DNA from: Candidatus Woesearchaeota archaeon
GTDB lineage: Archaea > Nanobdellota > Nanobdellia > Woesearchaeales > GW2011-AR9
DNA length: 64,000 bases
Assembly: GCA_018696595.1 (NCBI GenBank)
Contig: JABHQW010000008.1
Location: 128,001-192,000 of the forward strand
Direction of reading: 5' to 3'
Shown: piece by piece, positions 9,525-15,891 of the stretch
Numbering within the stretch: position 1 is the first letter of the stretch
How the letters are laid out: the number at the start of each line of letters is the position of its first letter
The notes under the pieces: generated by a model
Told to the model about the DNA's origin: nothing
Seen by the model: only the letters and a program-made list of their open reading frames with translations
Databases searched by the model: none
Made by a program: the position numbers and the translations under genes

Positions 9525-9588
9525 ACCCAGCGTTAGTACTTCCCTTGTGAGACGATGATCAAGGGCGTTAAACGTTGGGTTCATAATC
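9525..9588 (+). ncRNA. candidate K-loop hairpin sRNA (H/ACA-like)
   Basis: 10-bp basal stem ACCCAGCGTT/AACGTTGGGT, internal loop, upper stem CCCTTG/CAAGGG capped by U-U and tandem GA pairs; TATA-like TTTTAAAT at 9493-9500. Confidence 0.55.
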
Positions 9589-11000: not shown

Positions 11001-11555
11001 ATGACAATCCTCTCAATTATTGGAACTTCTGGAGTTGGAAAATCATTTTTAGTTAAACAACTAGCTGCAATAGAAGGCTTACCTGCTTTTTTTGAAGGAG
11101 AAGAAGGTACAATCCCTAAAGAAGTTTTAGAAAATGTCTTCTCTAAAAAAGATTCTATTCAGAGATATGATTGGTTTTTGAACCATTATAAAAAAATATT
11201 AGATAACGCAAGAAAAGTTTCTGATAATGGTTTAGATTGTTATACGGATTGTTCAGAAACATTAGCTAAAGCAATATTGACTGTAGAAAAAGCAGAAATT
11301 AAATTAAACTTACCAAAATCAGATAAAACTATTATTCTAACAGCATCAAAAGAAAAATTACAAGAACTAATTAACTTAAGAGCAAGAGATAGTGAAAATA
11401 ATGAAAAAGCTATTATTCGAGCTCTTAAAATTCAAGAACATCTAATTAAACTAGCGAGAAAAGAATCATTAATTATTATTGATAGATCAAATCTAGATTT
11501 CACAAAAGAAGAAGATTTAAAAAAAATATTAAAAAAAATAAAAAGTTTAAACTAA
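11001..11555 (+). CDS. P-loop nucleoside/nucleotide kinase-like protein
   Basis: IIGTSGVGKS near the N-terminus, 184 aa. Confidence 0.6.
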   Translation: MTILSIIGTSGVGKSFLVKQLAAIEGLPAFFEGEEGTIPKEVLENVFSKKDSIQRYDWFLNHYKKILDNARKVSDNGLDCYTDCSETLAKAILTVEKAEIKLNLPKSDKTIILTASKEKLQELINLRARDSENNEKAIIRALKIQEHLIKLARKESLIIIDRSNLDFTKEEDLKKILKKIKSLN

Positions 11556-12860
11556 CTTATCATCAGTTAAAATACTTACTTTCTGAGATTCTTTAACTTT
11601 GGAACTAGTTCCAACTAAATACTTAACTCCAAGTTTCTCGGCAACTCTAACTAAGTCAACATCAACCGCACCATCCAAAATTAAAGCGTGAACTCCTCCA
11701 TTTAAACTTTTTACAGTACTAGTTAGCTCACTTAAAGGGACTTTACCCAAGATGTTTAATTTATCATCAAAGATGCAAGCACCCCTTGTTCCAAACAAAT
11801 CATCAAGAGTTTCTTTAAATTTAGATTTCTCTTCTGCAGATAATTTTACTTCTTTCCGAACAGTTCTTTGCGGAGCTGAATGACTTTGAGATCTTTGAAA
11901 TCTAGACTCTGGTTTCTTATATTCAGGTCTTCGTTGAGCTGGTCTTTGAGTTTGTTCTCTTCTTCCAGTATGTCCTAAATGATTGCCTCTTGAAACTGGT
12001 TCTTCTTTCAAAGCCCCAGTATCATCAATTCCAAGATCTAATTTAGCTTGTTCAGCAGTTATTTTACCACGTAAAGCTTTATGGATCTCTTTCTTAGTAA
12101 TTTCTTCAACTTCTTTTCCATCTGGTGCTTTACATACAGAATCAATATCTGCTACGCTTAATAATTCCCGAATAATCAAGTTTCCACCACGATCACCATC
12201 AACAAAAACAGTAGTGTTTTTCTTTTTGGTTAATTCTTTAATGGTTTCTGGACAAGAAGTTCCGTTCATTGCAATTGCATTCTTAAATCCATGCTTAAGT
12301 AAGTTTAAGACATCTGCTCTACCTTCAACGATAATAATGTCATCACTTTCTTCTATTGCTGGTCCTGCTGCAAGCTTTTCTCTACCATAATCAGTAACTT
12401 CCATCATTCTTACAGATTTAGAAACTTCATCAGCAAGTTCTTGTGAATCTGGAAGAGTGTTATCAGTTAAGTCTTTTAGTAATTCTTTCGCTCTGTCAAT
12501 CACAAACTGCCTCTTACTAATCCGAACATCTTCAACTTTACCAACTGTAACTTTAGCATTACAAGGACCAATTCTTTGAATAATCTCCAATGCTGCACCA
12601 ACAATTGCAGTTTCAGTTTTATCTAAGCTACTTGGAATAATAATTTCTCCCTTAGTTTTTCCAGAACTTGTGGAAACATTAACTTCAATTCTACCAATTC
12701 TTCCACTTCTTTGTAATTCTCTTAACTCTAAATCATTTCCCAACAATCCTTCAGTTTGTCCGAAAATTGCCCCAATTACATCAGGACGATCTACAACACC
12801 CTCAATTAAAATTGTTGAATGAATAATGTATTTTGCCGCTACTGGGCTTATTTTTGCCAT
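11547..12860 (-). CDS. dnaG: archaeal DnaG-type primase (exosome-associated)
   Basis: GVVDRPDVIGAIFGQTEGLLG, TOPRIM IVEGRADV and FVDGDRGG. Confidence 0.95.
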   Translation of the reverse strand: MAKISPVAAKYIIHSTILIEGVVDRPDVIGAIFGQTEGLLGNDLELRELQRSGRIGRIEVNVSTSSGKTKGEIIIPSSLDKTETAIVGAALEIIQRIGPCNAKVTVGKVEDVRISKRQFVIDRAKELLKDLTDNTLPDSQELADEVSKSVRMMEVTDYGREKLAAGPAIEESDDIIIVEGRADVLNLLKHGFKNAIAMNGTSCPETIKELTKKKNTTVFVDGDRGGNLIIRELLSVADIDSVCKAPDGKEVEEITKKEIHKALRGKITAEQAKLDLGIDDTGALKEEPVSRGNHLGHTGRREQTQRPAQRRPEYKKPESRFQRSQSHSAPQRTVRKEVKLSAEEKSKFKETLDDLFGTRGACIFDDKLNILGKVPLSELTSTVKSLNGGVHALILDGAVDVDLVRVAEKLGVKYLVGTSSKVKESQKVSILTDDKLV

Positions 12861-13101
12861 TTTTTATTCCTCCGAATAGTACTTTAGAAATAGCGCTTTA
12901 ACAAATCGTCAATGATCAAATTTTGATTCTTTTGTACTAAAATTATTATTGATTGATTGAACATGATAAGCACCCTTCCAAAGTGTTTTTATTTTTATAC
13001 TAGAAAAAATGTCACTAAATCTCATTACTTGAGGTTACTAAATTAATTGTTATATGTTTAATTATATAGCGAATAGTGAGTTGGATTTTCTAGTTTTCTA
13101 T

Positions 13102-13184
13102 GATTATGAAGCCCGCTTCACTAACTCCCAAGTTCAAAGCTTGCATTTAGCGTAAGCTCCCCAGGGTACTCTCGTGACGGGCTT
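13102..13184 (-). ncRNA. candidate K-turn hairpin sRNA (H/ACA-like)
   Basis: Stems AAGCCCG/CGGGCUU and UCAC/GUGA, pocket, canonical K-turn (UUU bulge, GA/AG/AG); TTTATATA at 13214-13207 on minus puts +1 near 13184. Confidence 0.6.
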
Positions 13185-13500
13185 AGTTTTCTAGGTGTGC
13201 TTATAATATATAAATGATTCGGTCTGAAAATCAGATTTTAAAAAAAGAAGCAAATTTAAGCTTAATTTACCGAATTCAGACAGTATTTAAGAAGGATTAA
13301 AAACCCCAGTAAAACCGGATTCATCATCCAGCATTACAAGGGTAAAAGAGGTGGTTTTGAGGTGTTTATTACTCTTAAATGACAACTAATATATAAGGTT
13401 TTTGGTTGTTTGTCACTAAGGAGTGGTTTAATTGTCTGAACTTGAACCATTATGTTTGAAGCCAATTAAGCTTTTAATTCAAAAACAAACTATTTAAGAC

Positions 13501-15891
13501 ATGCTTTCACAATTCTTCATTACACATGTAGAACCCCTACATTTACAAAAAGGCAAAGAAGCATTGTTTTATGTTAGAGAACAAGATTTATCTACAGGAA
13601 GAGGTAAATCCCATATTAGAATAAAAGAAGTCCCACATTATTTCTTTACTCGCAATATGCCAAACGACCAATTAGCTGGACACATTCTTAAGTTTGGACA
13701 ACAACCTGATTTAGAACATTTAGTTATGGAACAACATCGTATTAGTAGCAATTGGTCTTTCTTAAGAACAGAGGGATGTAAAGAAGATAGAAAAGTTTTA
13801 CCTCATCCCTTTGTTTGTAGAAAAGATTCTAAAGATAAAAGAGACCCATCAGGAAATAGTTCTCCCTCAAAATTATTAAGATGGCTTTATCCACCAATGA
13901 TGTTAATACCTTCGCCAGATGAAATACCTCTCCCTTTAGAAATTATGGGTTTTGACTTTAATTATCAATTTGCAGGTTTAGAGCACGTAATTAATGATTT
14001 AATGGCCATTGCAGATATTGAAGTTCGAGATTGGCAAATTGGAAAAGATAGTATCTTTCAAATGGTTTATATTTCTCCGCTAAGTCAAATTATCTTTCAT
14101 GACCTACCTTTTAATGATCGTGAGCAAGAAGGATTTAGACTAATAAGATATCCCACGCAAAAAGAATTAGGGCAACTGACAACCCAATTAATTGCTCAAG
14201 AAGACCCCGTTTGTTTAGCGGGTCACAATTTAATGAATTATGACCAACTACAGCTTAGAAATATTACTCAAGCATATTTTCCTGCAACCAATGAATATCA
14301 TCCTGTTACTAAATCTGCACAAGGATTTGGTAGAGTTTTAACAAAAGGAAGATTTACGATTGATACTTATGGATATTTCTTCAATTGGTTAAATTTGTAT
14401 GTTAACAATAAAATTGAAACAATTCAAGAGTTTTCTAAATCAATTGGTTATGACGAACAAGCTGCTTTACTTAGAAGAGCAGAGCAAGGAGACAAAGAAG
14501 CATTTAGAAAATTAACCCATTATTGTATTGAAGATGGTAAAATCACTTGGGATTTGCTGCAGAAAGTTAAAGAGACCGTTTTTGATAAATCTTTAGCATT
14601 AAGAACTTCTCCGGACAAAATCAGTTCATCTGGTAGAAACTCTTTGGGGAGAGAAGATTGGAAAAGAAAATATTTTTTATTTCATGGTAATTATGAAGAA
14701 GGTTGGAGAAGAAGAGCAAAAAGGGCAAAGAAAGGTTTTTCAGTAGAAAAAGTAAAAAACAGATACCTACCAATAACAAAGTTCCCAGAGTTAGTTGATT
14801 TTCATCAAGGAATGTTTGAAAATGCCCACATTGTTTATTTTACTCCTTTTGTTTCTGCTTGTTCAGAAGAAATAGAAATGTTATTTCCAGAATTGTTAAA
14901 CAAAATTAGAGTTTCTCAAGACCCTTTAGAAAAATTTGATTGGTTACAAGTTCTTAATGCCAAGTTAAGTTATGTTGTTGAAGAAATAGTTGATGTTTTA
15001 GATCAGCAAGAAGGAGATCTTTTTCAAAGAACAGAATGGATAGAAAAAGATCAATATTGGCAATTATCTAATTTTTTAAAGGACCACCATTTTGGGCTTT
15101 CTGGAGCTGTAGACTTAGTTAATAAATTTGTTGGAGCTTTAGAAAAAACCAGAGAATTTTTAGCAGATCCGAAAGTAGATATTATTAATCGAGGAAATTA
15201 TTTTTATTTTCTTACTGGGGCGGTAGATTTAAACAAACTTAGAGAACAAGAACTGGGAATACATATGGGACAAGGACAAGTGTTGTCATTAGGAAAAGAA
15301 AGAACTGTTTCCAACCCATTTGGAACAGATAATATTGACAGATTAATTTATCAAGGATATAAACCCTACCTTGGAACAAAATTTGTTTTTGAAAAAGAAG
15401 TATTAAGAGATGTTTTAACAATGTTTTTTGGTAAAGAAGATCCCAAAATTATTCACAGTTATTTGAGTCATGTTTTAGATAAAGTTCAATCCGGCAATTT
15501 ACCAAGAGAGGCATACTTTGTTCCAAAAAAAACAAGAACTTACTTTAAAGGACTATTTAACCAAGCAGTTGAAAGAAGTGAAAGAGATAAAGAGTTAAAA
15601 GACAGGTACGCTCAACTAAAAAGAAGAATCAAAGATCGAATGTCAAATGACACAGCCAGAGAATTAACTGGATTTACTGAACAATGCCAGGATTGGTATT
15701 GTCATCCTTTCCTAGAAGAATGTTTAGAAGGCATCTTAAGCCCTTATCCACCAACAACAAACCTGGTTTATGTTAAAGATTCTCAAGGGATATTACTCCC
15801 AGAATCAATGACTGATAGTTTAGATTTAGAATTTTACCATGACAAATTAAAAGAGTCATTAAGACCTTTTATTGATATTATTAATTCTTAA
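13501..15891 (+). CDS. divergent family B DNA polymerase-like protein; 3'-5' exonuclease motifs retained, polymerase motifs not recognisable
   Basis: ExoI ADIE, ExoII GHNLMNYD, ExoIII YCIED; no DxxSLYP or YGDTD; C-terminal LDLEFY resembles the PolB thumb end. Confidence 0.6.
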   Translation: MLSQFFITHVEPLHLQKGKEALFYVREQDLSTGRGKSHIRIKEVPHYFFTRNMPNDQLAGHILKFGQQPDLEHLVMEQHRISSNWSFLRTEGCKEDRKVLPHPFVCRKDSKDKRDPSGNSSPSKLLRWLYPPMMLIPSPDEIPLPLEIMGFDFNYQFAGLEHVINDLMAIADIEVRDWQIGKDSIFQMVYISPLSQIIFHDLPFNDREQEGFRLIRYPTQKELGQLTTQLIAQEDPVCLAGHNLMNYDQLQLRNITQAYFPATNEYHPVTKSAQGFGRVLTKGRFTIDTYGYFFNWLNLYVNNKIETIQEFSKSIGYDEQAALLRRAEQGDKEAFRKLTHYCIEDGKITWDLLQKVKETVFDKSLALRTSPDKISSSGRNSLGREDWKRKYFLFHGNYEEGWRRRAKRAKKGFSVEKVKNRYLPITKFPELVDFHQGMFENAHIVYFTPFVSACSEEIEMLFPELLNKIRVSQDPLEKFDWLQVLNAKLSYVVEEIVDVLDQQEGDLFQRTEWIEKDQYWQLSNFLKDHHFGLSGAVDLVNKFVGALEKTREFLADPKVDIINRGNYFYFLTGAVDLNKLREQELGIHMGQGQVLSLGKERTVSNPFGTDNIDRLIYQGYKPYLGTKFVFEKEVLRDVLTMFFGKEDPKIIHSYLSHVLDKVQSGNLPREAYFVPKKTRTYFKGLFNQAVERSERDKELKDRYAQLKRRIKDRMSNDTARELTGFTEQCQDWYCHPFLEECLEGILSPYPPTTNLVYVKDSQGILLPESMTDSLDLEFYHDKLKESLRPFIDIINS

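Follow-up and report, generated by a model that had tools for sequence, protein, structure and literature searches.

A conserved single-hairpin RNA of a DPANN archaeon is a predicted H/ACA guide for helix 69 of 23S rRNA

We describe a small structured RNA, encoded on the minus strand of a DPANN archaeal genome, that is very probably a genuine and conserved H/ACA guide for the loop of helix 69 (H69) of 23S rRNA, its function being predicted by comparative analysis. The RNA, which had no annotation, appears to be an orthologue of guides described in Nanoarchaeum, Pyrococcus and Haloferax, and its identification draws on its structure and conservation, complementarity to the rRNA of its own genome, covariation between guide and target, the presence of the protein genes, and homology to an expressed H/ACA RNA of Nanoarchaeum equitans. 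The result annotates an RNA gene of DPANN genomes that Rfam misses and that our covariance model, R1, finds over a large part of the Nanoarchaeia. It also assigns a target, the universally conserved pseudouridines of H69, to the one H/ACA sRNA that has been described from N. equitans, and suggests that RNA-guided modification of H69 is kept even in strongly reduced archaeal genomes. Finally, it offers leads on how H/ACA ribonucleoproteins (RNPs) may become simpler: a UCA box, an undetectable Gar1, linkage to dnaG, and single versus double hairpins.

Based on these comparisons, we propose that a single-hairpin box H/ACA sRNA of ~80-85 nt would be transcribed from its own TATA promoter and would bind L7Ae at a K-turn in its upper stem, with Cbf5-Nop10 seated on a 9-bp lower stem and the 3' box, for which most orthologues have ACA and the family of the source genome (f1) has UCA. 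The open pocket would then pair with the loop and the 3' strand of H69, GUUA (plus A65) with U1911-C1914 (plus U1915) and GAGAGU with A1919-C1924, after which Cbf5 would convert U1917, U1915 or both to pseudouridine.

The source genome is archaeal, 1.19 Mb in size with 32% GC, and 97% complete, and the sequencing runs that contain its DNA are marine or seawater metagenomes. The window analyzed here is a stretch of 64,000 nucleotides (C3:128001-192000), and all coordinates below refer to it unless a contig is named. A first-pass annotation of the letters alone had noted a hairpin with the pocket GAGAGUA/AGUUA, a K-turn, a tail and an upstream TATA box, and every feature that it listed is present on the minus strand, the hairpin lying within 13190-13095. 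From the fold, the R1 model and the orthologues, we predict an sRNA that occupies 13101-13184, with ends that are likewise estimates. The TATA box TTTATATA (13207-13214, minus strand), the candidate promoter of the sRNA, lies 22 nt before the AAGCCCG that begins at 13184. Among f1 orthologues, the end of a TTTATA(T/A)A box lies 23-25 nt ahead of GCCCG, a spacing from which a transcript start at ~13184-13182 would be expected, and a TATA box before GCCCG is also found in several other families.

Read directly from the sequence, the stems are AAGCCCG/CGGGCUU and CAC/GUG. The lower stem P1 has its 5' strand (GCCCGUCAC) at 13174-13182 and its 3' strand (GUG, a bulged AA and GCGGGC) at 13111-13121, an arrangement supported by covariation and by RNAalifold: GCCCG/CGGGC is invariant in the order, and the pair N14-N75 and CAC/GUG covary. 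The second stem had initially been read as UCAC/GUGA; its CAC/GUG core holds, but by covariation U14 pairs with position 75 (22/29 sequences paired, 10 double changes) rather than with A73 (13/29 paired), so the lower stem consists of 9 bp with a 2-nt bulge in the 3' strand. Above it, the 5' guide strand GAGAGUA (13167-13173) is invariant in 29 order-level sequences, and the 3' guide strand AGUUA (13122-13126) carries a nearly invariant GUUA preceded by A or G in most genomes and by U in N. equitans. The upper stem P2 pairs CCCUGG (13161-13166) with CUUGGG (13127-13132), and the two strands covary, with changes on both sides in 5 of 6 pairs. The K-turn and apical part span 13133-13160, with GGA at 13160-13158, the bulge UUU at 13138-13136 and GAA at 13135-13133. 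The K-turn runs in the order C-stem GCUU/AAGC, bulge UUU, then G.A, A.G, A.G and C-G, and it encloses the C-stem, an AC bulge and an apical hairpin. The 3' tail UUCAUAAUCA (13101-13110), of which UUCAUAAUC covers 13110-13102 on the minus strand, places UCA (13109-13107) at the position that the ACA box holds in most orthologues.

A genome-wide scan for the tail motif TCATAATC returned 135 matches, mainly inside coding sequence, and the motif alone therefore has no diagnostic value. The single-sequence fold has an energy of -28.3 kcal/mol and a z-score of -2.05 against shuffles, a modest gain, and for this reason we built the case on comparison with relatives. At gathering thresholds, an Rfam scan of the 64-kb window reported two tRNAs only, and a permissive scan of the hairpin region gave only snoRNA and U4 matches at chance level. 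We rejected a protein-coding reading, no ORF of at least 40 aa overlapping the hairpin, and also a C/D box RNA reading.

BLAST searches recovered orthologues at 73-85% identity in ~40 of 60 relatives, and from 29 of these sequences (alignment A1) we built the covariance model R1. The source hairpin scores 100.5 bits and is single-copy in its genome by both BLAST and the model. R1 found exactly one copy in each of the 18 sampled genomes of the order (18/18) and one orthologue each in 43 of 151 genomes across the class. Many families of the class encode Cbf5 and lack an R1 match, which counts against a guide; with Cbf5 present in 145/151 class genomes, R1-negative families included, phyletic co-occurrence of the RNA with Cbf5 is uninformative.

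In an alignment of 57 model-aligned orthologues (A2), both partners have changed in 16 of the 22 pairs. Of the cells, 87% are paired, a share that falls to 25-42% once the 3' partners are shifted, and the covariation score was not reached in any of 500 shuffles, so that comparison places the fold far beyond chance. RNAalifold recovered the same helices de novo from the orthologues. Invariant or nearly invariant positions comprise the two strands of the pocket, GAGAGUAC and RGUUAG, the K-turn motifs GGAG and UGA, and GCCCG/CGGGC, as well as a CA dinucleotide at +3/+4 past the stem (C83 and A84 at least 90% conserved in 29 sequences). Variable stems around a nearly invariant pocket and K-turn are the signature of a guide RNA. 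The pocket opens between a lower stem of ~9 bp and the upper stem, as in H/ACA RNAs, and the K-turn is recognizable in the sequence, where it is predicted to bind L7Ae. On each strand, the distance between the distal G.A pair and the base of P2 is 9 nt, which agrees with the rule that places the archaeal H/ACA K-turn 9-10 from the base of the pocket (PMC7075261).

The model also located a member of the family that has been detected experimentally. R1 matched genome G069 at C1:339487-339578 with 57 bits (E = 1.7e-12), and this match fits, in position and sequence, the 3' part of the H/ACA box sRNA of N. equitans, a 164-nt RNA at 339411-339574 supported by 10,900 reads (PMC3491384, supplementary file 2). 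G069 is thus N. equitans, which places the source organism in the Nanoarchaeia, the DPANN class that includes N. equitans. The 3' hairpin of the N. equitans RNA ('Stem 2', Randau 2012, PMC3491384) shares with ours the P1 core GCCCG/CGGGC, the pocket GAGAGU/GUUA, the K-turn and the position of ACA. It differs in that another hairpin precedes it in the same RNA, with ACA as the hinge, and in lacking a dnaG neighbor, whereas the source RNA stands alone, has its own TATA box and carries UCA instead of ACA.

A further relationship leads to the Pyrococcus guides. The N. equitans locus matches the Rfam family HgcG/Pab40 (RF00064) with 42.4 bits (E = 1e-10), below the gathering threshold of 77 bits, and its 3' hairpin aligns to Pab40 motif 3 with high posterior probability. 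Searching the whole source genome with RF00064 gave no match at E <= 10, including in the hairpin region; RF00064 models three hairpins and the source RNA has one, and the 77-bit threshold is not reached, a point against a guide. The hairpin had at first been proposed as one of a new DPANN sRNA family. Its homology to the N. equitans 3' hairpin, together with the same job being done by motif 3 of Pab40, Pf7 and Afu4 and by stem-loop SL2 of Haloferax sR-h45, instead makes it a new member of a published kind.

We located the 23S rRNA of the source genome at C6:194325-197262 (minus strand), where H69 reads GGGAGUAACUAUAACUCUC; its E. coli numbering is one that we take from established knowledge of H69. 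The H69 sequence originally given for the comparison proved nearly right, although the genome's own helix has A rather than G at 1918. AGUUA is complementary to U1911-U1915 and GAGAGU to A1919-C1924 of this 23S rRNA, the pairing falling around U1915/U1917 as had been anticipated. The target nucleotides left unpaired are A1916-U1917-A1918, or UAUA when the terminal A65-U1915 pair is open.

A rival reading is an H/ACA guide whose true substrate is some other RNA (a tRNA, an mRNA or a different site in rRNA), with a coincidental match to H69. In its favor, short bipartite matches are common once G-U pairs are allowed; a target scan of that kind had no power (~3600 matches in the genome and 2 in 23S rRNA), and we therefore scanned with Watson-Crick pairs only. 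Under this rule, the 4.5 kb of 16S and 23S rRNA contain no bipartite match other than that in H69, against a chance expectation of 0.009-0.015 from the genome-wide rate, and only 7-21 of 2000 shuffled rRNAs contained any such match. The published RNAsnoop targets of the N. equitans hairpin, 23S U614 and 16S U796 (PMC3491384), favor another substrate, and the H69 target supported here differs from them. Against this stand the position of the match on the universally modified H69 loop, the action on H69 of the homologous Pyrococcus motif and of an analogous Haloferax hairpin, and a guide change that tracks the target. On balance we consider a different substrate very unlikely.

That covariation between guide and target is the strongest evidence for H69 as the target. 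We recovered H69 from 14 of the 30 genomes queried, the other 16 lacking it because their rRNA is unassembled in the genome bins. Guide position 22 is complementary to 23S position 1920 in all 14 genomes. Eleven of them have C1920, and their guides read GAGAGU, placing G opposite C. The remaining three (G097, G062 and G128) have U1920 in an H69 that reads AAUUCUC, with its partner 1910 changed to A, and their guides read GAGAAU or GAGAAA, a G-to-A change that compensates C1920U. Across these three genomes, the co-change may have arisen just once or twice in evolution. Other variant guides, GAGAUUA and GAAGGUA, also occur among the genomes.

In the course of these comparisons we observed that the 23S rRNA genes of several relatives are interrupted, a few nucleotides past the 3' side of H69, by insertions of ~300-700 nt (L071/L079 in G020, L075/L081 in G089, L076/L082 in G097, L077/L080 in G114, and L083:1480-1800 in G128). 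They are probably rRNA introns. G128 has an additional 32-nt insertion within the H69 loop.

Two features of the geometry count against a guide. The predicted pairing leaves 3-4 target nucleotides unpaired rather than the canonical two, and the distance from box to target exceeds 15 +/- 1 unless the bulge of the lower stem is extrahelical: with 16 nt between the box and the last pairing base, the distances to the two uridines, counted as for Haloferax SL2, are 17 and 19, or 15 and 17 when the 2-nt bulge is left out of the count. Orthologues vary in this respect. In N. equitans the loop reads UGUA and guide position 65 is U, leaving UNUN unpaired, and the guide of G053 has an extra U (GAGAGUUA) with which pairing would reach U1917 and form a canonical UN pocket for U1915.

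Known H69 guides span a similar range of geometries. In P. abyssi, motif 3 of Pab40 is the guide for psi2016 of stem-loop 69, and it was active in vitro (PMC2377435). This motif and its counterparts in Pf7 and Afu4 resemble our RNA in addressing the same helix and in their CCCG/CGGG stem core, 3' guide GUUA, GAUGA K-turn and ACA, but Pab40 has three hairpins and, in the Rfam consensus, the 5' guide GGGUUAG. Read from that consensus, the Pab40 5' guide would pair as far as U1917 and form a canonical UN pocket for the U1915 equivalent; by comparison GAGAGUA of the source RNA lacks one U, which leaves the 3-4 nt unpaired. A closer geometric parallel is SL2 of sR-h45 in Haloferax volcanii, in which one pocket produces both H69 pseudouridines with UNUN unpaired, distances of 17 and 19, and a required K-turn (PMC7075261). 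The likeness is one of geometry as described there, namely a single pocket flanking the H69 loop; sR-h45 has two hairpins set apart by a 56-nt spacer, and in the source RNA, unlike sR-h45, A65 can pair with U1915. The same two conserved pseudouridines are guided in eukaryotes by snR191 (yeast) and U19/SNORA74 (human) (PMC7075261), which differ from our RNA in using two separate hairpins, each with a canonical UN, in lacking a K-turn and in having Nhp2 in place of L7Ae.

The 3' box is another unusual element. In the slot +2 to +4 past the lower stem, most lineages have ACA and some have AUA, and f1 and a few others have UCA. The box of the source RNA had previously been taken to be AUA, at +4 to +6. 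In orthologues of a second H/ACA-like RNA this AUA is not conserved, and the conserved slot is +2 to +4. We therefore read UCA as the box equivalent, and AUA is probably not the box. By sequence comparison the UCA of f1 appears to depart from the ANA rule, and it counts as a point against a guide, given that ANA is considered necessary for anchoring Cbf5, especially with atypical pockets (PMC7075261).

The second RNA just mentioned is an H/ACA-like hairpin with a K-loop at 9525-9588 on the plus strand. Its P1 is CCCAGCG/CGUUGGG and its pocket UUAGUACUU/CGUUAAA. It carries the same tail UUCAUAAUC as the H69 hairpin, with the canonical 15 nt from upper stem to UCA, and is conserved with a YUCAU tail in 7 of 35 f1 genomes.

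An H/ACA guide needs its proteins, and a search for cbf5, nop10 and l7ae in the source genome recovered all three: Cbf5 with DKCLD, TruB_N, TruB_C_2 and PUA domains, Nop10, and L7Ae along with a second protein of the L7Ae fold. Gar1 (PF04410) was not found in the source genome even at E <= 10. Among 101 genomes of the class, N. equitans included, none exceeded the family cut-off and two gave weak sub-threshold matches, and the same search detected Gar1 in 3 of 4 archaeal controls. Gar1 has either been lost in the class or become too divergent for the profile. Its apparent absence is a further point against a guide; H/ACA RNPs that lack Gar1 keep activity in vitro (PMC3608112).

While collecting Cbf5 sequences across the class we noticed that the genes of family f55 (e.g. 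in G126, G117, G184, G196, G106, G202 and G172) contain in-frame TGA codons within their TruB_N matches. The frames are otherwise open over 320-370 aa, which hints at TGA recoding in that DPANN family.

Downstream of the RNA lies a dnaG-like (Toprim) gene (11547-12860, minus strand; Pfam Toprim families). Across the class, 56 of 57 loci have such a gene 92-557 nt downstream of the RNA and in the same orientation, N. equitans being the sole exception. This synteny rules out a mobile element and leaves room for co-transcription with dnaG, which would be compatible with guide function. Archaeal DnaG is a subunit of the exosome, and a link between the pairing of sRNA and dnaG and the processing of sRNA or rRNA 3' ends is conceivable.

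The same linkage is what would be expected if the hairpin were a cis-acting structured leader, an L7Ae-binding regulatory element of the dnaG-like mRNA rather than a trans-acting guide. The source genome has no T-tract terminator 3' of the hairpin, as would suit a leader, and one published account proposes translational regulation by L7Ae and K-turns in archaea (PMC5539422). Yet the invariant residues are the two single-stranded strands of the pocket, which are complementary to rRNA and covary with it, a pattern that a leader gives no reason to expect. The N. equitans copy, moreover, lies apart from dnaG and accumulates as a discrete sRNA, and in f1 a TATA box of its own precedes the hairpin at a constant spacing. 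We regard a leader as highly improbable and retain a guide RNA as the best account of the locus.

The hairpin is also flanked by a 10-bp direct repeat, TAGTTTTCTA (13091-13100 and 13184-13193), that is exact in the sequence. As the target-site duplication of a MITE or repeat relic, a mobile element that would be expected in many copies with variable flanks, it would support such an origin, and it is unusual for a single locus: just 0.11% of genome positions have a 10-mer that comes back 60-130 nt further downstream. By BLAST and covariance model, however, the element has a single copy, and it holds an orthologous, syntenic position throughout a class. A flank repeat of at least 9 nt occurs in 2 of 57 orthologous loci against 0.48 expected and is therefore not a family trait. 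The repeat is real, but it is probably due to chance or specific to this lineage; with one copy that is syntenic in 56/57 loci, a MITE origin is effectively refuted and its probability negligible. Single-copy, syntenic, able to pair with H69 and accompanied by genes for its proteins, the hairpin fits the H/ACA-type guide that had been suspected from its letters.

More tentatively, the unusual features of the locus could belong together as a trimmed H/ACA system in this lineage, an idea that we consider possible but rather doubtful. UCA would replace ANA in both H/ACA-type RNAs, implying an altered recognition by the Cbf5 PUA domain, the class-wide absence of Gar1 would reflect a three-protein RNP, one pocket would make both H69 pseudouridines, and the guide would be kept beside dnaG for co-expression or 3'-end maturation.

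Two further observations concern the neighborhood of the sRNA. A 796-aa ORF at 13501-15891 (plus strand) has a sub-threshold match to the exonuclease domain of family B DNA polymerases (19 bits); a pattern scan of genome contigs found no relatives of it, and it adjoins the sRNA in L001 and L008 only. In many other families of the order, the sRNA hairpin is immediately preceded by a further covarying hairpin whose terminal ACA falls exactly at the junction, so that the RNA takes the double-hairpin form known from N. equitans (e.g. L054:1627-1769, minus strand, and L018:1364-1506, plus strand). A motif search of the source genome for this 5' hairpin of its relatives returned nothing convincing. 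The conserved single strands of the upstream hairpin, UGGGUCCUU and GAGACAC, are complementary to the source 23S rRNA at ~2685-2705, a stretch immediately 5' to the sarcin-ricin loop, and the pairing leaves 4-6 nt free.
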